A stretch of 64,000 nucleotides of DNA from Paludibacteraceae bacterium. GTDB taxonomy: Bacteria > Bacteroidota > Bacteroidia > Bacteroidales > Paludibacteraceae. The position numbers and the translations under genes were made by a program. The stretch is taken from assembly GCA_024405875.1 (NCBI GenBank), contig JAKSOA010000010.1:3295-67294 (forward strand), in the 5' to 3' direction. Of this stretch, positions 11,252-50,241 are shown in pieces. Within the stretch, counting starts at the first letter, position 1. Every line of letters starts with the position of its first letter. The notes beneath the pieces are model-generated. The model did no database searches. It saw only the letters and a list, made by a program, of their open reading frames with translations, and was not told where the DNA came from.

Positions 11252-11506
11252 TTACTGTTTTTCTATTTTATCAACTTTGCCCTTGCCTCCTGTAATTACA
11301 TTTACCGCCTGTGCTATAGCCTGTGCCACATTAGGCATAACGGCTGCAGGGGTGGCTGCCTTAGGCTGAGGTTTCTCCTCTTCAGGGGCTATTTTGTTGA
11401 CAATGGCAATCAATGCCTTGCCAAGTTCTATTACAAGAATTAGAACAACAAATACAGTTCCCATTCCAATTCCCATTAATTCTAACGCGTAGATAAAATT
11501 TCCCAT
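11252..11506 (-). CDS. oadG: OadG-family decarboxylase gamma subunit
   Basis: 84 aa with a single N-terminal TM helix and an Ala/Pro-rich tail. It lies directly upstream of oadA. Confidence 0.75.
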   Translation of the reverse strand: MGNFIYALELMGIGMGTVFVVLILVIELGKALIAIVNKIAPEEEKPQPKAATPAAVMPNVAQAIAQAVNVITGGKGKVDKIEKQ

Positions 11507-27082: not shown

Positions 27083-28555
27083 TTAGTACGCTCTTGCAAA
27101 TACAACTCTTTGTTTTGATGGTTTGCCTGTCACCATACATTTGCCGGGTGTCTTGTCCCCGTCAAGAGGAATGCAGCGTATGGTCGCTTTGGTCTCAGCC
27201 TTAATCTTCTCCTCAGTCTCCGGTGTGCCGTCCCAGTGGCACATTAGGAATCCGCCTTTCTCTATCTCTACCTTAAATTCATCGTATGTGTCCACATTTC
27301 GTGTTACAGACGCTCTGTAGTCAAACGCTTTCTTAAATATATTTTTCTGAATATCAGCAAGCAGTTCTTTAATATAAACGTCGATGCCGTCAATTGAGCG
27401 GGTCTCCTTCTCCATAGTGTCACGGCGAGAGACCTCTATAGTGCCGTTCTCAATATCTCTCGCACCTATTGCCAGACGTACGGGAACACCCTTCAGTTCA
27501 TATTCAGCAAACTTGAATCCGGGACGCTTGTTATCAGAGTTATCGTATCTATATGATATGCCAAGGGCTCTTAGTTTAGCGGTTATCTCCGATACTTTAG
27601 CATCAATAGTGGCAAGTTGTTCCTCATTTTTGTAAATAGGTATTATAACTACCTGATATGGTGCAAGATTTGGAGGCAGGACAAGTCCGTTGTCATCAGA
27701 GTGGGTCATAATTAAAGCACCCATCAGACGGGTTGATACACCCCACGATGTTGCCCATACAAGTTCCTGCTGGTTCTCTTTGTTGAGGAATGTAACGTCA
27801 AACGCTTTTGCAAAGTTCTGACCAAGGAAATGTGAGGTTCCTGCCTGTAGAGCCTTGCCGTCTTGCATAAGTGCCTCAATGCAGTAGGTCTCCAATGCCC
27901 CTGCAAAACGCTCATTGGCAGATTTTACGCCACGTATTACAGGTACTGCCATAAAGTTCTCTGCAAAATCTGCATAAACGCCAAGCATCTTTTTAGCCTC
28001 TGCTTCAGCCTCTTCACGTGTGGCATGTGCTGTATGACCCTCTTGCCATAGGAACTCCGCCGTGCGTAGGAACAGACGTGTACGCATCTCCCAGCGTACT
28101 ACGTTAGCCCACTGATTGCAAAGAATAGGAAGGTCTCTGTAAGAGTGAATCCAATTCTTATATGTACTCCATATAATGGTTTCGGATGTAGGGCGTACTA
28201 TGAGTTCCTCCTCAAGGCGTGCCTCAGGGTCAACAACAACACCGCTGCCGTCAGGATTTGTCTTTAATCTATAGTGTGTTACAACGGCACACTCCTTTGC
28301 AAAACCCTCTACATGGTCTGCCTCTTTGCTTAAAAAGGATTTAGGTATAAACAACGGGAAATAGGCGTTTACATGCCCGGTCTCCTTAAACATACGGTCA
28401 AGTTCACGTTGCATCTTTTCCCAAATAGCATAACCGTAAGGCTTAATAACCATACAACCTCTGACCGCAGACTGCTCCGCAAGGTCTGCTTTTACCACTA
28501 AATCATTGTACCACTGTGAATAGTTCTCACTACGCAGCGTCAACTCTTTTGCCAT
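27083..28555 (-). CDS. proS: Proline--tRNA ligase (archaeal/eukaryote-like type)
   Basis: About 490 aa starting at [16 protein letters not shown]. Class II aaRS motifs are present, and the C-terminal domain ends in Y. I prefer the start at 28555 over the track start at 28600. Confidence 0.95.
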
Positions 28556-29489
28556 TATTCTCCCTGTTAATAAATTGTTTAAGACTCTCTTTATATACAA
28601 CCAATAATGCTATCGCATAACAAAGAAATAGAGATAGGATTGTATATTTAAAAACTATTTTAGTAATATGGTTTTTAGGCAAGTCATTAACCTGCATATC
28701 TGATGAGATGTACACTATCTCATTTTGATATTCAAGTGAAATAGTAGCACTTAGTATCATATTGCCCAGTCTGAGCTTTTCGTTTACTAATTCAGAAGGT
28801 TTTACCATTGATGTCATCAAATTGCCGGCGCTGGAGAAACCAAGCAAGACGTCGTCACCTTTTTTATCTACTATGGAATCCAACCTGACGGACTCAGCCT
28901 CGGCTATTTTTATGTTCGCCTTCATCTCCGCCAGTCGCTGATTGTTTATTCTCTGGTAATATGAATTACTACTCAAATACCTTACTATTCCGTCATTAAA
29001 CAACGGGAAAACAGACCTCTCATTCGCCTCAACTTCAATGCTGAATTTGTGCTTAAGAGGTATGGTTTTGTTTTTTGCTGTGGAGTCAGCAAAGTCAATT
29101 ATATAGTCGGTCTTCAGTGAATCCGTGTAGCAGAGGTAGTGCGGTTTAATTTTCTTGATTTTAAGCACTTCTTCAATAGGTATTCCTAAGGCCTCTGATT
29201 TGTGTTGCGGATCTGTCAGATCAAAATTTCTAATGTTATTTATGAATTCACTGCTGTCTGCAATGTTGTTTACAAGAATCATAGTGCCCTGGTATACGGG
29301 GAATAACAGCCAGAACAAAATGGAAATGGCTACGCCAAAAATTACTCCAATGACACCAATCCACCATTTCCTAACGCAGAACTTAAATAAAAAGAGTAAC
29401 GGACTGCAGATGTATTCCTTAAACCAATTCCAGAACACTTTAATAAGGTCAATTAAGTCAAATTCTTTTTCGGTGGTAGAGTTTTCCAT
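28530..29489 (-). CDS. Polysaccharide co-polymerase (Wzz-like chain-length determinant) candidate
   Basis: About 319 aa from MENSTTEK. It has two TM helices (N-terminal [22 protein letters not shown] and C-terminal [16 protein letters not shown]). They flank a periplasmic region with a coiled-coil segment, which is the PCP topology. Confidence 0.5.
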
Positions 29490-29738
29490 AGTTTTTTTAG
29501 TAAGAAAAGTGCAAAGATAATAATTTTTAGTACAAAAACGCCATATCATCAAAAATTAAAACAAAAATATTTTTTTCTGGCTACTCTCTTTACGGGATTT
29601 AGGTTTTTCTCTTTTCTAACGCTCTACATAATCTCCAAATCATTGCATGTAGAGTCGGGAAAGGTTGTAATGTGAATTTCGGCGGTCATTTTTGATAATT
29701 AATGAGATTTTTTTTTTTTGACTGTCAAATTATTTGCA

Positions 29739-29793: not shown

Positions 29794-30234
29794 ATGAAGA
29801 AAGTATTTATTTTGGCTCTTGCAGCCATTTCAAGTGCCGCTCTTGTATCTTGCTCAAACAACAACGCTGAGGGAGAGGCAGAGGCACAGGACACTTTGGC
29901 AGTTGAGGTAATTGACTCAGTTGCAGTGGAAGTTGACACTCTTGCCGCTACAGACTCAACAATTATTGAGGAGATTGTAGAAGAGGTTAAAGAGGAGACA
30001 AAAACAGTTGTAAAAAAGCAAGCCGCTCCTGCTAAGAAAGCTGTTGAGGCAAAGGCAGAGGAGGTAAAGCAAGAGGTTGTTGAAACCGCTCAGGAGGTTA
30101 AGGAAGAGGTTGTTGAAGCCGCACAGGAAGCACAACAAGAGGCTCAACCACAGACTCTGAAAGAAAAGAAAGATGCCGCAAAACAAGAGCAAGTTGATGC
30201 TAAGGCGGCAAGTAAGAAAAGTCGTTTGAAATAA
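29794..30234 (+). CDS. Acidic low-complexity lipoprotein
   Basis: 146 aa with a lipobox (AALVSC). The mature part is a Glu/Lys/Ala/Val-rich repeat (EEVKQEVVETAQEVKEEVVEAAQEAQQEAQ). Confidence 0.65.
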   Translation: MKKVFILALAAISSAALVSCSNNNAEGEAEAQDTLAVEVIDSVAVEVDTLAATDSTIIEEIVEEVKEETKTVVKKQAAPAKKAVEAKAEEVKQEVVETAQEVKEEVVEAAQEAQQEAQPQTLKEKKDAAKQEQVDAKAASKKSRLK

Positions 30235-30707: not shown

Positions 30708-30740
30708 AAACGGGAGCCACTGCGGTTCCCGTTTTTTTTT
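30708..30740 (+). terminator. Intrinsic terminator after the two lipoprotein genes
   Basis: AAACGGGA-loop-TCCCGTTT followed by a T9 run. Confidence 0.85.
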
Positions 30741-30825: not shown

Positions 30826-32271
30826 ATGACTATGCTTGATTTGGAGCCAAAGGAGGTTTGGCGATACTTTTCTGAGATTTGCAGTGTGCCGCGCGGTTCA
30901 GGTTTTACAGACGGGATACGTGACTACTTGGTGCAATTCGCCTCAGACAACAACCTATACTGCAATATTGATGAGGTTGGCAATGTAATTATACGCAAGC
31001 CAGCCACAGACGGTTGCTCACTTAGCAGTCTGCTTTTTCAGGGACATATGGATATGGTATGTGAGAAGAACTCAAATGTTGAGCATAATTTTCATACAGA
31101 CCCGCTTGAAGTTATTGTTGATGAGAAAAATGACACTGTAAGAGCCAACGGCACAACCCTTGGCGGCGATGACGGCATTGGCGTGGCTATTGCAATGGCA
31201 CTGCTCACTGATAAATCAATATACCGCCCCGTTGAGGCTCTATTCACAGTTGATGAGGAGGTGGGGCTGACAGGAGCGCTGATGATTAAGCCCGGACTTC
31301 TTGAATCAAAGACTCTCATAAACCTTGACTCAGAGGATGATAATGAGATTATAATTGGTTGCTCAGGCGGTGTTGACACATCAATATGGATTGATATTGA
31401 GCGTGAGAGACCTGACTTCAGGGCGTTTGCGGCAAAAGTCAAGATAAGCGGGCTCAAGGGCGGTCACAGCGGAGAGGATATTGATAAAAGAAGGGCAAAC
31501 TCAAACAAACTGCTTGCTGAGTTTTTAAGAAGAATTCAGAAGGTTATGGAGTTGAGAATAGTCTCAATAGACGGAGGCGGCTTACGCAATGCGATACCAC
31601 GTGAGGCAGAGGCGGTTATAATGGTGCCGTGGGCAGATAAGGAGACTCTGCGTGTTATTTGGAATATGTATGAGGCTGAGTGCGAGGACGAATGGAAGGC
31701 TGGTGAGCCGGGAATGAAGTTTGAACTTGATTCCGTTTCAGTGCCTGAAGAGTGCTACACAAAGGAACTTACACAAAAAATAATAACAGTCCTCACTGAT
31801 ACACCGCACGGAGTTATTGAGTTCAACCACACCTTGAATATGGTGGAGGTCTCAACAAACCTTGCCTTCATACGTGAGAAAGATGGAAAATTGCTTGTGG
31901 GCACCAGCCAACGCAGTCCTAATGCAATTAAGCGTGACACTATAGCAACACGTGTTGGTGCTGCGGGAAGAGGCATCGGGGCAAAGATTGAGCATATTGG
32001 AGCCTACTGCGGTTGGGAGCCTAAGAAAAACTCACCTCTACAGAAAAGCGCTGTTGAGGTTTATGAGAGACTCTTTGGAAACAAGCCCACGGTCAAGACC
32101 ATTCACGCAGGGCTGGAGTGCGGGCTCTTCCTTGACAAATATCCTGACCTTGATATGATTTCAATAGGTCCTAAAATTCTGGACATTCACTCCCCGAATG
32201 AGACGCTCTACATAAGCACTGTTGAAAAATGTTGGAAGTTTGTAAGGGAACTTTGCAATGTTTTGCCATAA
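30826..32271 (+). CDS. pepD: Aminoacyl-histidine dipeptidase (M20 family, PepD)
   Basis: 481 aa with the PepD-like N-terminus LEPKEVWRYFSEICSVPRGSG, the metal-site motif GHMDMV, and TVDEEVGLTGA. Confidence 0.9.
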   Translation: MTMLDLEPKEVWRYFSEICSVPRGSGFTDGIRDYLVQFASDNNLYCNIDEVGNVIIRKPATDGCSLSSLLFQGHMDMVCEKNSNVEHNFHTDPLEVIVDEKNDTVRANGTTLGGDDGIGVAIAMALLTDKSIYRPVEALFTVDEEVGLTGALMIKPGLLESKTLINLDSEDDNEIIIGCSGGVDTSIWIDIERERPDFRAFAAKVKISGLKGGHSGEDIDKRRANSNKLLAEFLRRIQKVMELRIVSIDGGGLRNAIPREAEAVIMVPWADKETLRVIWNMYEAECEDEWKAGEPGMKFELDSVSVPEECYTKELTQKIITVLTDTPHGVIEFNHTLNMVEVSTNLAFIREKDGKLLVGTSQRSPNAIKRDTIATRVGAAGRGIGAKIEHIGAYCGWEPKKNSPLQKSAVEVYERLFGNKPTVKTIHAGLECGLFLDKYPDLDMISIGPKILDIHSPNETLYISTVEKCWKFVRELCNVLP

Positions 32272-32277
32272 AAGTTG

Positions 32278-32285
32278 TACATTTG
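32278..32285 (+). promoter_or_regulatory. TAcaTTTG -7 box upstream of dnaX
   Basis: Motif match followed by CA, just after the pepD stop (32269-32271). The ATG at 32291 follows closely, implying a very short leader. Confidence 0.4.
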
Positions 32286-32290
32286 CAGAG

Positions 32291-33397
32291 ATGGAAAGTT
32301 TTGTAGTATCAGCACTCAAGTACCGCCCCGCAACCTTTGATACGGTTGTTGGTCAGAAGGCATTGGTGACCACCCTGCGTAACTCAGTTAAGTCAGGGCA
32401 GATTTCACACGCATACCTCTTCTGCGGTCCTCGTGGTGTTGGAAAGACCACAACCGCACGCATACTTGCAAAGACAATAAACTGTCTCAATCCTAAAGAG
32501 AACGGTGACGCCTGCGGTGAGTGCGAGTCCTGCAAGGCTTTTGAAGAGAGACGCTCACTTAACATTCACGAACTTGACGCCGCCTCAAACAACAGCGTTG
32601 AGGACATCCGTGTTCTTATTGACAAGGTACGCATACCGCCTCAAATAGGAAAATATAGCGTATATATAATTGATGAGGTGCATATGCTCTCAACAAGCGC
32701 CTTCAACGCCTTTCTAAAGACACTTGAGGAGCCACCTGCGTATGCCGTCTTCATTCTTGCCACGACAGAGAAAAACAAGGTTCTGCCTACCATAATATCC
32801 CGCTGCCAGGTCTTTGATTTCAACCGTATGAATATTCAGGAGACGGTGGCTCACCTTAAGGATATTGCAAGGAAAGAGGGCATAGAGGTTGAAGATGAGG
32901 CTCTCAATGTCATAGCAATGAAGGCTGACGGCGGAATGCGTGACGCCCTCTCAATATTTGACCGTGCCGCAAGCTTTGGAGGAGGCAAGATAACCTATAA
33001 GAATGTTATTGAAGACCTTAACATACTTGACTTCAACTACTATTTCAAAGCCGTTGATTTTGCTCTCAGCAAAGATATAAGCGGTTCTCTGCTTATGTTT
33101 GATGAGATTCTTGCAAAGGGCTTTGACACCGGGAACTTTGTGCTTGGGCTTATGGAGCATATACGCAATGTGCTGGTTTGCAAAGATGAGGTTACCGCTC
33201 CCCTGCTTGAAGCGGCTGACAGCGTTAGACAGAGTTACATTGAGCAATCAAAGAAATGCTCGCAGGAGTTCCTGCTTGAGGCGTTGGAGGTGGTTAATGA
33301 TTGCGCCATAAACTACAAACAGAGCAAAAGTCAAAGGCTTACAGTTGAGTTAATGTTAATCCGTTTGTGCCAACTTCCGGATCAAAAAAAAAATTAG
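32291..33397 (+). CDS. dnaX: DNA polymerase III subunit gamma/tau, domains I-III (zero-frame product ends just after an A10 run)
   Basis: It has the Walker A motif GPRGVGKTT, the zinc module CGECESC, the DEVHML box, and the sensor motif SRCQ. I prefer the ATG at 32291 because a TAcaTTTG box sits at 32278-32285. The ORF stops (TAG, 33395-33397) one codon after the A10 run. Confidence 0.9.
   Translation: MESFVVSALKYRPATFDTVVGQKALVTTLRNSVKSGQISHAYLFCGPRGVGKTTTARILAKTINCLNPKENGDACGECESCKAFEERRSLNIHELDAASNNSVEDIRVLIDKVRIPPQIGKYSVYIIDEVHMLSTSAFNAFLKTLEEPPAYAVFILATTEKNKVLPTIISRCQVFDFNRMNIQETVAHLKDIARKEGIEVEDEALNVIAMKADGGMRDALSIFDRAASFGGGKITYKNVIEDLNILDFNYYFKAVDFALSKDISGSLLMFDEILAKGFDTGNFVLGLMEHIRNVLVCKDEVTAPLLEAADSVRQSYIEQSKKCSQEFLLEALEVVNDCAINYKQSKSQRLTVELMLIRLCQLPDQKKN
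33384..33393 (+). promoter_or_regulatory. dnaX: A10 homopolymer at the dnaX gamma/tau junction (candidate slippage site or homopolymer sequencing error)
   Basis: The zero frame reads C AAA AAA AAA A TTAG and stops. A length of A9 would join the downstream 197-codon frame. Confidence 0.6.
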
Positions 33398-33407
33398 GCT
33401 GAAGTAT

Positions 33408-33450
33408 CAGAAGAGGTCATTGCTCCCATTCTTCCCGGAGACCTCTGCTG
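33408..33450 (+). promoter_or_regulatory. Stem-loop 14 nt downstream of the dnaX A10 run
   Basis: CAGAAGAGGTC (33408-33418) pairs with GACCTCTGCTG (33440-33450) at 10 of 11 positions. Confidence 0.45.
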
Positions 33451-33986
33451 TTCCACAATACTCTGTTCCGCTTAAAAACGCCACACCGGAGCCTGTCATT
33501 CCAAAAGAGACGGTACGCAAATTCAGTCGCGGGCAAAAGATAGACCTCTCAACCAAAGCGGCTCTCTCCACGAAGAAGCCGGTTATGAGTGTCGGAGAAC
33601 CTTCAAATGAGAATAAAAAGCGTGACACACCTGTTACAGAAGATGGCATTTTCTCTCTATGGATGCGTTTCCCCTCACAAATAAGGGATATGTACGGATT
33701 ACATTTCCTATTCTCCAAGGCACCGCTATGGAACTCAGAGAAGATGACAATAACGGTTGAGACATCGGGGCAGTTAATTGCGACAGAACTTAATACAGTA
33801 CTCAGCAAACTTATAAACTATATGCGTGACGGGCTCAGGAATGACTCTGTCAATGTGGAGATAAGTGTCAATGAGTCCAATCAGGATAATATGGATATAA
33901 GCCCTAAAGGGAAAGCCACCGCTATGGCTAAGAAAAATGAGAAACTTCGCGACCTTTGCCGTCGCCTTAACCTTGATTTCACATAA
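33420..33986 (+). CDS. dnaX: DnaX tau-specific C-terminal segment in the +1 frame (this frame is open from 33360 across the A10 run)
   Basis: There is no plausible independent ATG. The segment has a Pro/Ser/Lys-rich linker and then a conserved-looking domain ending KNEKLRDLCRRLNLDFT. From memory, this resembles Bacteroidota DnaX C-termini. Removing one A from the A10 run fuses it in frame to 32291-33391. Confidence 0.6.
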   Translation: MLPFFPETSAVPQYSVPLKNATPEPVIPKETVRKFSRGQKIDLSTKAALSTKKPVMSVGEPSNENKKRDTPVTEDGIFSLWMRFPSQIRDMYGLHFLFSKAPLWNSEKMTITVETSGQLIATELNTVLSKLINYMRDGLRNDSVNVEISVNESNQDNMDISPKGKATAMAKKNEKLRDLCRRLNLDFT

Positions 33987-34285
33987 TGGATAAAGAGAAG
34001 TTCAAAAGCGTTTTTTTTAAGATTGTAAACAAATATACAATCACAATTGTTGTGTTTCTTTGCATTCTGTTTATGGGAGAGAAACATAACGCTATGCAGC
34101 GTATTGAGTATGCCCGTCAGATAAAGGCGTTGGAGCAGGAGATTGAGTACTACAAGGAACTTACACGCAAGAACCAGGAGAAACTTGAGCAGTTGCAGTC
34201 AGATAACGCCAATCTTGAGAAGTTCGCACGTGAGGAGTGGCTGATGAAAGAGCCGGACGAGGACATATTTAAAATTAGTAATTAG
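33986..34285 (+). CDS. Septum formation initiator (FtsB/DivIC-like) family protein
   Basis: 99 aa with an N-terminal TM helix and a coiled coil (IKALEQEIEYYKELTRKNQEKLEQL). This is the typical FtsB/DivIC architecture. Confidence 0.7.
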   Translation: MDKEKFKSVFFKIVNKYTITIVVFLCILFMGEKHNAMQRIEYARQIKALEQEIEYYKELTRKNQEKLEQLQSDNANLEKFAREEWLMKEPDEDIFKISN

Positions 34286-34292
34286 TAATTGT
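34272..34292 (+). repeat. Tandem heptanucleotide array AAATTAG TAATTAG TAATTGT
   Basis: Read directly. The stop TAG (34283-34285) of the FtsB-like gene lies in unit 2. The NUDIX ATG is at 34295. Confidence 0.85.
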
Positions 34293-34294
34293 AT

Positions 34295-34786
34295 ATGAAT
34301 TTGTACTGTAATAAATGCGGAACTAAGTTGGAGATGGCGGAGTGCAAAGGAGAGCCTCAGCCTATACCCTACTGCCCTTGGTGCGGTGAGTACAAGTTTG
34401 AGCAGTTCAACGCCGCCGTAATAGTGGCAATACTCTCAGAAGACCGCAAACGTATTTTTATGATGAAGCAGTACAGCCGTGAATTTTACAATTTTCTTGC
34501 CGGTTACATAAACAAAGGGGAGTCAGCAGAGGAAGCCTTACGCCGTGAGATGATGGAGGAAATGGGTATGACCCCTACATCAGAGAAGATTCTGTTCACC
34601 CAATACTTTGCAAAAACAAACACCCTGATGATTGCCTTTGAGGCTACAGTGGCTGATGAGGATATATCACACGCCAACCCCGATGAGGTTGATGAGGCTC
34701 GCTGGTTTGACTCATTTGAAGAGGCTTATGCCGCAGTAATAAAGGGAGCGGTGGCGGAGAGGCTGCTGAAGGTGATAATGGGCTAA
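34295..34786 (+). CDS. NUDIX hydrolase with N-terminal zinc ribbon
   Basis: It has a Cys4 ribbon (CNKCG...CPWCG) and a Nudix box (GYINKGESAEEALRREMMEEMG). I prefer the ATG at 34295 over the track's TTG at 34289. Confidence 0.85.
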   Translation: MNLYCNKCGTKLEMAECKGEPQPIPYCPWCGEYKFEQFNAAVIVAILSEDRKRIFMMKQYSREFYNFLAGYINKGESAEEALRREMMEEMGMTPTSEKILFTQYFAKTNTLMIAFEATVADEDISHANPDEVDEARWFDSFEEAYAAVIKGAVAERLLKVIMG

Positions 34787-48908: not shown

Positions 48909-50071
48909 TGAGGAAATTTTACATTATTTGTTTATTCATAGCGTGTTATGCATTTGCATTTGCGGCTGACTCACTTTCAACGGTTACTCCGGATACATTT
49001 CTTCCGCCACAGCCAAAGAGTGCCAAGGATTCAAAGGTGAAACTGCTCTATAATGTTGACTTCCTCTTCTTTTTTGATAACCGTGAATATGACCGTTCCC
49101 CATATCAGCGCTCCCAAACACTTTTTGGAGCACGTTTGTCACCGGAGATAGGCGTAGGTATAATGGATAGCGTTGCCGGTAATCACCGCCTGATGGCTGG
49201 CTGTTCATATATTCAGCCCATCGGAGCGAACTATAAGGACGCAAAGGTGCTGCCTACAATCTACTATCAATTCCGCAAGAGAGGATTCGGTGTGCATTTA
49301 GGACTTCTGCCATTTACCAAAATGATAGAGGAGATGCCTGACTACCTGATGTATGACTCCATAACATATTTTCATCCAAACATACAAGGTGCCCTTTTCA
49401 ACTATCAGGACAGGCGTGGTTTTGTGGAGATAATGGCCGATTGGAGAGGAATGTGGTCAGCGACAACCCGTGAGGCATTCCGTGTCACACTTAACGGACG
49501 CTATAATTACAAATGGTTCTTTGTTGGCGGACGTGCAATGATGAACCACCTTGCCTGCTACGCACCAGAGACAGCAGCACCATCGGTAGGGGTATGTGAT
49601 GACCTTCTCGGCAGCGTCTATTTTGGATTTGATTTAGGGAAACGTACAGGAGTCACACCTCTTGACTCATTTGCCATAAGGGCTAATTATATTATCGCGT
49701 ATGAGAATGACAGAGAGGCGGCGAAACGCTCAATACCACAGGGTGGACTATTTGAAATCTTTCTAAGGTGGAAGTGGATAGGGTTCCGTAATGTCACATA
49801 TTATGGTCAGCCTCAGATGCCGTTGTATCCGGACTACCATTCACTTCTGAATCAAGGAGACCCATTCTATCAGGCTAAGTTCTACAACCGCTCTGACATA
49901 TTCTTCTACATATACAATAACAGTTTTGTGAACATTCTTGCCTCTGCTAACTTCCACGTCGCAGACGGAACTTTTACCACACAGCAACAGATTGTAGCAC
50001 AATTCTCCCTTGACGGTGTATGGGGATTCCGTCACAACTCAAAGAAATTAAGGTCAGTATTAGGAAAGTAA
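48908..50071 (+). CDS. Hypothetical secreted, probably outer-membrane beta-barrel, protein
   Basis: 387 aa with a signal peptide (ACYAFAFA). The sequence is aromatic-rich with an alternating pattern. Its ATG overlaps the mutL stop (TAATG). Confidence 0.5.
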   Translation: MRKFYIICLFIACYAFAFAADSLSTVTPDTFLPPQPKSAKDSKVKLLYNVDFLFFFDNREYDRSPYQRSQTLFGARLSPEIGVGIMDSVAGNHRLMAGCSYIQPIGANYKDAKVLPTIYYQFRKRGFGVHLGLLPFTKMIEEMPDYLMYDSITYFHPNIQGALFNYQDRRGFVEIMADWRGMWSATTREAFRVTLNGRYNYKWFFVGGRAMMNHLACYAPETAAPSVGVCDDLLGSVYFGFDLGKRTGVTPLDSFAIRANYIIAYENDREAAKRSIPQGGLFEIFLRWKWIGFRNVTYYGQPQMPLYPDYHSLLNQGDPFYQAKFYNRSDIFFYIYNNSFVNILASANFHVADGTFTTQQQIVAQFSLDGVWGFRHNSKKLRSVLGK

Positions 50072-50241
50072 AAAACCGCACCGCTATTATGATCCAAACT
50101 TGAAAAAGAAAGGATTTGGGGTCCGGACTATCTTTGTAATCCGCCCGAATACCTTGCGGTATAGCGGCACGCCATTGAAACACCCGGATTACCCGTTTTA
50201 ATAATTGATTGTAAAGTTTGCCGAAATAAGCGATGCGGTCT

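Follow-up and report, generated by a model that had tools for sequence, protein, structure and literature searches.

Conserved interruption of dnaX at an A10 run in a Paludibacteraceae clade: a candidate site of transcriptional slippage for tau synthesis

The dnaX gene of a Paludibacteraceae bacterium, located on a 64,000-nucleotide stretch of contig JAKSOA010000010.1 (assembly GCA_024405875.1; the whole 64-kb stretch is referred to here as the window), is divided into two open reading frames (ORFs) at a run of ten A residues (A10). ORF1 encodes a gamma-type product and ORF2, in the +1 frame, encodes the tau C-terminus. Tau links the clamp loader with both polymerase and helicase. We conclude that the A10 run is probably a recoding site, where slippage of RNA polymerase would join ORF1 and ORF2, and that the divided gene is conserved as such among close relatives. 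A clade that made tau only through departure of a polymerase or a ribosome from its template would mean that an essential function can rest permanently on an error-like event.

Structure and conservation of the two-frame dnaX

Direct reading of positions 33340-33400 gives ...TGC CAA CTT CCG GAT CAA AAA AAA AAT TAG GCT GAA..., in which the zero frame stops at a TAG (33395-33397) one codon past the run; the ORF1 product therefore carries the C-terminus ...LPDQKKN. Its start at 32291 (MESFVVSALKYRP) agrees with the N-termini of homologous proteins. An alternative start, the ATG at 32258, is not conserved. Pfam identifies DNA_pol3_delta2, DNAX_ATPase_lid, AAA and DNA_pol3_gamma3 in the ORF1 product and no domain past residue 366. 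In the +1 frame, a stop at 33357-33359 precedes an open stretch (33360-33986) that runs through the A10 and reads ...SVCANFRIKKKIRLKYQKRSLLPFFPE...; up to the run, this stretch contains no start codon. Counted from the run, ORF2 comprises 200 codons and is closed by a TAA at 33984-33986. Conceptual fusion of the two parts yields 564 amino acids (aa) from an mRNA with nine A residues (A9) and 565 aa from one with twelve (A12), the latter with the junction QKKKIRLKYQK. Within the window, the A10 is the sole A run of nine or more. An earlier note on this DNA (the original prediction) had described the run, the zero-frame stop, the 368-aa ORF1, the open +1 frame and a fusion of about 564 aa, and all of these were confirmed by reading and translation; the TGA that also closes the -1 frame (33400-33402) was not part of it.

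The conceptually fused 564-aa protein (A9 version) served as the query of a protein search. Homologues at 70-92% identity, drawn from Logan, JGI, NCBI and ENA assemblies, were without exception short: 12 of 12 are 368-393 aa long and cover the same first 65% of the query. Contiguous tau proteins of 570-607 aa, covering 100% of the query, had identities of 52% or less. Because the near homologues are all short and full-length proteins appear only at the lower identities, we take an assembly error to be ruled out. The 90%-identity cluster to which the window's own ORF1 protein belongs holds 12 distinct sequences, all of 368-373 aa.

Comparison at the DNA level included 16 related contigs from more than 12 independent datasets, 11 of which were reached through protein look-ups and 5 of which were found by a DNA pattern scan of metagenome contigs that admitted runs of A8 to A14. 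The run is exactly A10 in 15 of the 16; in thirteen of these the +1 frame carries tau and continues for 193-214 codons past the run, and in two short A10 contigs it is still open at the contig end. Runs of A9, runs of A12 and fused genes were each found in 0 of 16. The lone A11 contig, L094 (2233-2243, minus strand of the locus), has tau shifted into the -1 frame by the additional base and is otherwise identical around the run to L095 and L088; its A11 reflects a miscalled homopolymer or, alternatively, natural variation that efficient slippage tolerates. Bases adjoining the run vary among the contigs on the 5' side (GATC, GAGC, GAAC or GGGC) and on the 3' side (TTAGGCTGA, TTAGGCTAA, TCAGGATAA or TTAGGCGACTAA), and since these flanks differ, the contigs represent independent lineages and not one assembly copied repeatedly. 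A -1-frame stop is found 3-4 codons past the run in every clade member, formed by differing codons (CTG A, CTA A, ATA A or CGA CTA A). The zero-frame stop lies one codon past the run in most members and 5-8 codons later in L084-L087. Comparison with close relatives, which the original prediction had recommended, thus finds both the A10 and the two-frame arrangement conserved, and the homopolymer error that it offered as the trivial alternative is rejected by the same contigs. Recurrence of the exact run length and of the layout among the close relatives is well beyond chance. To judge from these relatives, the split dnaX is a genuine conserved arrangement and neither an error nor a pseudogene.

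With 724 bits, the fused 564-aa protein exceeds the cut-off (685) of NF011531, the NCBIfam equivalog model for DNA polymerase III subunit gamma/tau, and ORF2 can be regarded as a true tau C-terminus because contiguous tau proteins cover the whole of the fused query. When the tau frames of nine clade members were aligned, the pattern KKKI-RLR-(3-5 basic residues)-(L/K)PFF(P/T) was conserved directly past the run, followed by a variable linker and then by roughly 120 aa of conserved C-terminal domain. In the nine sequences, the tau frame has its first ATG, GTG or TTG at codon 12, 61, 28, 53, 76, 115, 61, 53 and 35; in eight of them this codon comes after the conserved PFF motif, and no conserved tau-frame start codon was found among them upstream of KKKIRLR..LPFFP. 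A conserved junction peptide that has no start upstream of it is therefore translatable only by ribosomes coming from ORF1. As far as the reading frames can tell, ORF1 and ORF2 must be joined during expression.

In current annotation the two halves appear as separate entries. ORF2 of the window (33420-33986) is listed at NCBI as MCQ2360725.1, a 188-aa 'hypothetical protein MJ009_04520 [Paludibacteraceae bacterium]' from a metagenome-assembled genome (MAG), and gene callers assign varied internal starts to ORF2 of the relatives, giving proteins of 86-188 aa. Recoded dnaX genes would thus be systematically mis-annotated as a short dnaX plus a 'hypothetical protein', and may be taken for pseudogenes or for faults of the assembly; a split dnaX should be handled as one recoded gene, both in annotation pipelines and in checks of genome quality. 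Coordinates of the features are collected in Table 1, in which the PF28557 assignment rests on precomputed annotations of the relatives' ORF2 and of full-length tau proteins.

Table 1. Features of the split dnaX locus, in window coordinates
Feature	Position	Strand	Basis
dnaX ORF1, zero frame; 368-aa gamma-type product with clamp-loader domains I-III	32291..33397	+	translation, Pfam
Weak candidate nascent-RNA hairpin, AUCCG-(13 nt)-CGGAU	33359..33382	+	consensus fold, shuffles
A10 run, proposed frame-change site (T10 on the template strand)	33384..33393	+	sequence reading; relatives
dnaX ORF2, +1 frame; tau-specific part with basic junction, linker and C-terminal domain	33384..33986	+	translation, alignment
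TGA, -1-frame stop three codons past A10	33400..33402	+	sequence reading
Tau-frame motif LLPFFP, 12 codons from run start	33420..33437	+	alignment of 9 clade members
Tau C-terminal domain, ending KNEKLRDLCRRLNLDFT	33624..33983	+	tblastn; alignment; PF28557 (DUF8439) in relatives

The A run of dnaX across Bacteroidota

The run was followed across the phylum in a survey of 83 loci, consisting of the 80 Bacteroidota dnaX matches listed (55-64% identity), the window and two close relatives. The matches (L003-L082) were obtained by scanning species-representative genomes for the N-terminal part of the protein, and no species above 64% identity was found among the matches listed. A run of at least A7 lies within 50 codons past domain III in 64 of the 83 listed loci, and in 55 of the 83 it is exactly A10. 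Of the surveyed loci with a run, 45 have tau in-frame, 14 have it in the -1 frame and 5 have it in the +1 frame. These five +1 loci are the window, L001, L002, L010 (a Paludibacter MAG) and L011 (a Bacteroidaceae MAG). The in-frame A10 group includes cultured isolates of Pedobacter, Hymenobacter, Chitinophaga and Aequorivita. A continuous dnaX that has no run was found in 16 listed loci, including Bacteroides, Muribaculaceae and Rikenellaceae MAGs. According to the original prediction, uninterrupted relatives of this kind would make the window's copy a pseudogene; they are only distant relatives (about 55-64% identity), and a pseudogene is hence not implied.

In a neighbour-joining tree, the window clade is monophyletic and uniformly +1, while L010 and L011 represent separate +1 origins. 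By parsimony, the arrangement changed at least 17 times on this tree, and the run is found in all three codon phases. Both non-tau frames close early past the run: in the run-bearing listed loci the median distance to a stop is 4 codons and 93% of stops fall within 7, compared to a median of 18 codons and 17% within 7 at 11,484 control positions in the same genes. That Bacteroidota keep an A10 at the gamma/tau boundary whichever of the three frames encodes tau supports selection for both DnaX forms, and dnaX of the Bacteroidota may serve as a natural series of genes in which the influence of run length, frame and context on the tau:gamma ratio can be followed. In the literature searched, coverage of which was incomplete, neither the +1 arrangement nor an in-frame (Thermus-like) A10 across the phylum is described.

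The motif (L/K)PFF(P/T) was also noted in the wider comparison. It follows the basic KKKIRLRKK about 12 codons past the run in the window (33420-33437), L001, L002 and L083-L092, and similar 'IPFF' or 'LPF' motifs occur past the run in some -1-type Flavobacteriales loci (L036, L060 and L065). It might be a tau-specific interaction motif.

Slippage at the run and competing explanations

In the mechanism that we propose, RNA polymerase would slip on the A10 (T10 in the template) and release mRNAs with varying numbers of A residues. The templated A10 mRNA would give the gamma-type product ending ...DQKKN by normal translation. An A11 mRNA would give a second gamma-type product, ...DQKKKLG, terminated by the -1-frame TGA (...QKKKLG). 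Loss of one A (A9) or gain of two (A12) would give tau, 564 or 565 aa long and joined at ...DQKK(K)IRLKYQKRSLLPFFPE..., and it is these two mRNA species that we infer to supply tau. The gene would then yield both clamp-loader forms, with a polarity opposite to that of E. coli and Thermus, and a small hairpin on the 5' side of the run may aid realignment of the RNA. The combination of a fixed run length, a free frame and codon phase, and early stops in the other frames argues for transcriptional slippage of the Thermus type, and it is quite likely that the frame change occurs at transcription. In the same vein, a single function served by differing frameshift directions has been taken to indicate transcriptional realignment (Antonov et al. 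2013, PMC3711429). The reversed polarity put forward in the original prediction, with standard decoding giving gamma and slippage giving tau, is supported by conservation, and slippage itself is the step that we infer.

Folding of the RNA around the run points to the 5' side. In the window, the candidate hairpin (arms AUCCG at 33359-33363 and CGGAU at 33378-33382) ends one base short of the A run and has a free energy (dG) of -6.1 kcal/mol (z = -1.6, p 0.05 vs shuffles). A consensus fold of eight clade members keeps four core pairs, with GC-to-GU changes only. Among 63 run-bearing loci, the 36 nucleotides (nt) upstream of the run had a mean z of -0.81 vs dinucleotide shuffles, with 24% of loci at p <= 0.05, whereas the 36 nt downstream were no better than shuffles (5% at p <= 0.05). 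Phylum-wide, the 3' arm of the hairpin mostly ends 0-3 nt from the run, as in L010, L018, L065, L069 and L074, and no clear difference in hairpin strength was seen between frame types across the surveyed loci. Because the loci are phylogenetically non-independent, the enrichment of upstream hairpins is a lead only, and the hairpin is a tentative part of the model.

No signal of the E. coli type that stimulates ribosomal frameshifting was found. The consensus fold of the eight clade members contained no conserved downstream pairs, and the fold of a 150-nt region had a z of 0.23. The 20 nt upstream of the run (GTGCCAACTTCCGGATC) contain no GGAGG-like Shine-Dalgarno element, and the run ends in AAT, not AAG. 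Bacteroidia ribosomes work without Shine-Dalgarno pairing (PMC9976891). With neither downstream structure nor use of Shine-Dalgarno pairing, an E. coli-type frameshift stimulator is unlikely. A prfB-type, stop-stimulated +1 shift was considered as well and rejected: the adjacent stop is not conserved (L084-L087), and there is no upstream Shine-Dalgarno element.

A change of frame by the ribosome is the strongest competitor of transcriptional slippage, although we consider it unlikely. The ribosome would undergo +1 or -2 frameshifting, or slide on the lysine-coding A run, while RNA polymerase copies the A10 faithfully. Ribosomes slide on poly(A), as reportedly described by Koutmou and co-workers in 2015, and decoding could be slowed, as in prfB, by the zero-frame stop that most clade members have one codon past the run. 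In addition, A runs contain a slippery heptamer, A AAA AAA, and E. coli dnaX undergoes its -1 frameshift at A AAA AAG (PMC5009743). However, the same A10 accompanies tau in any of the three frames (in-frame, -1 or +1) and lies in every codon phase, which fits a direction-specific signal poorly, and early stops in both alternative frames would be needless for a shift in one direction. The adjacent zero-frame stop is displaced in L084-L087, no downstream structure is conserved, and Bacteroidia ribosomes would ignore Shine-Dalgarno stimulators (PMC9976891); runs of A9-A11, on the other hand, are experimentally proven sites of RNA polymerase slippage. Fission of the gene, with a gamma-like ORF1 and an ORF2 translated from an internal start whose polypeptides cooperate unjoined, is improbable to a greater degree. 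Gene callers and NCBI do present ORF2 as a separate protein of 86-188 aa, and the window offers a TTG at 33420, but no start is conserved: the first candidates range from codon 12 to 115 with conserved peptide upstream of them in 8 of 9 sequences. The tau frame is also open for 193-214 codons from the run in every relative that is long enough, and under fission neither the exact A10 nor the stops in both other frames would have a reason to be conserved.

Explanations at the level of the DNA fare worse still. We give next to no credence to a one-base homopolymer error or a recently inactivated copy, even though the window comes from a MAG and the A11 of L094 indicates that miscalls or variants do occur. 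The A10 recurs in 15 of 16 contigs across projects and assemblers, A9 and A12 in none; the arrangement is kept down to 70% protein identity with ORF2 conserved at the protein level; and a systematic +1 miscall would break the in-frame relatives, cultured isolates among them, which also have A10. A second intact dnaX, from which the original prediction would have concluded that this copy is a pseudogene, is absent from the 64-kb window, to which the search for one was confined. Equally hard to credit is variation of the run in the DNA, in which replication slippage would turn A10 into A9 or A12 in some cells, and these would supply tau. Homopolymers are classical phase-variation sites, and L094 (A11) and L095 (A10) are otherwise identical around the run, but tau is essential in every cell (as established for E. 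coli DnaX), so cells that inherited an off state would die. Neither an A9 nor an A12 allele occurs among the 16 contigs, and the run is also conserved in in-frame genes, where variation in the DNA would do harm.

Several points weigh against slippage by RNA polymerase as the source of tau. Our search of the literature on recoding of Bacteroidota dnaX, incomplete in coverage, returned bioinformatic description only and no experimental work. In Thermus, slipped mRNAs mostly carry one or more extra A residues in diminishing proportion (PMC5009743); the +1 geometry needs the less favoured insertion of two A residues or a deletion, and the yield of tau might therefore be low. An A run is slippery for ribosomes too, and translation may contribute to the frame change. 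With 5 bp and a 13-nt loop, the window hairpin is weak, and no compensatory changes support it. Finally, p-values of the survey, such as that for the early stops (Mann-Whitney p = 2e-33), are inflated because the loci are phylogenetically related.

A broader reading would join these observations, though we hold it to be doubtful as a whole. In it, the A10 and the hairpin abutting its 5' side would form a phylum-wide module that scrambles the frame of dnaX mRNA. Highly efficient slippage would populate all three frames, tau could have moved between frames at least 17 times with the tau:gamma balance kept, and in the +1 clade of the window tau would arise by hairpin-assisted deletion of a single base. 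To our knowledge, hairpin-assisted single-base deletion has so far been demonstrated only for an insertion sequence.

Relation to known systems and other features of the window

The nearest precedent for the window is the set of two-ORF dnaX genes reported by Antonov et al. 2013 (PMC3711429), which comprises 17 genes in 12 genera, nine of them with A10 and all of them -1 at the DNA level. Taxa in their Figure S3 are Flavobacterium, Cytophaga, Capnocytophaga, Chlorobium, Prosthecochloris, Pelodictyon and Coraliomargarita. As in the window, the gene is dnaX, the A10 is at the boundary between domain III and tau, ORF1 ends just past the run and tau is in a second frame; transcriptional realignment is the proposed mechanism, the phylum group matches, and both descriptions are purely bioinformatic. 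The two differ in that tau needs one extra A in the -1 genes and one A fewer or two more in the +1 window, and in that neither Bacteroidales nor Paludibacteraceae, the family of the window, is among the taxa of that study. By this comparison of sequences, the window locus is a +1 form of the already described two-ORF poly-A dnaX, distinguished by frame direction and taxon. The reversed dnaX arrangement is also briefly mentioned by Atkins et al. 2016 (PMC5009743). The original prediction called the arrangement unusual, which overstates the case: besides these 17 genes, 19 of the 64 run-bearing Bacteroidota loci listed here have tau in a second frame.

The dnaX of Thermus thermophilus (Larsen et al. 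2000, via PMC1088944 and PMC5009743) slips on an A9, and mRNAs with an A count other than 9+3n lead to nearby stops and to gamma. A run of at least nine A residues at the gamma/tau boundary and early stops in both non-tau frames are shared with the window. Tau and gamma arise from a mixture of mRNAs in Thermus, and a likeness in this respect is predicted for the window. The roles of the mRNAs would be exchanged: in Thermus the templated A9 mRNA gives tau and slipped mRNAs give gamma, whereas in the window the templated A10 mRNA would give gamma and some slipped mRNAs tau. In E. coli, as in the window, dnaX gives two products from one locus, with an A-rich slippery site at the same domain boundary. 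There the ribosome shifts by -1 at A AAA AAG, aided by a Shine-Dalgarno-like element before the site and a stem-loop after it, and gamma results; in the window such stimulators were not found and the shift would be required for tau.

Two systems outside of dnaX resemble parts of the model. The tssM1 gene of Citrobacter rodentium (Gueguen et al. 2014, PMC4256274) has an A11, from which mRNAs of A10-A15 were identified by mass spectrometry, and 20-25% of its product is full length. Like the window, tssM1 is interrupted just past its A run and has its long form in the +1 frame, and both tssM1 length variants are needed. Unlike dnaX, it encodes a type VI secretion component that is non-essential for growth and is interrupted in a few strains rather than clade-wide; its slippage has been shown experimentally. 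In the Roseiflexus IS630 element (Penno et al. 2015, via PMC5009743), forward realignment and loss of one base are promoted by a nascent-RNA hairpin that adjoins the motif on its 5' side. A one-base deletion would likewise yield tau in the window, and hairpins abutting the run are enriched in Bacteroidota dnaX. The Roseiflexus site differs in that it consists of T5C5 and depends strictly on a strong GC hairpin, whereas the A10 of the window is long enough to slip alone and its candidate hairpin is weak.

Gene order around the split dnaX is conserved in the clade (window 30826-34786; L001, L002 and L083-L088) and consists of an M20 peptidase gene, dnaX ORF1 and ORF2, and a gene for a small DivIC/FtsB-like protein. 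Past the DivIC/FtsB-like gene there follows a NUDIX hydrolase gene in some members, and then an acetyltransferase-like gene on the opposite strand. A T9 at 30732-30740 lies directly upstream of the M20 peptidase gene. An Rfam scan of the window returned no match near dnaX; its only match was Bacteroidales-1 (RF01693, a suggested 6S-like RNA) at 50068-50240 (-), with 71 bits vs a gathering score of 60, which is consistent with the window stemming from Bacteroidales. The longest homopolymer of the window is a T12 at 29708-29719, located between a minus-strand ORF (28530-29552) and a plus-strand ORF that begins at 29794.

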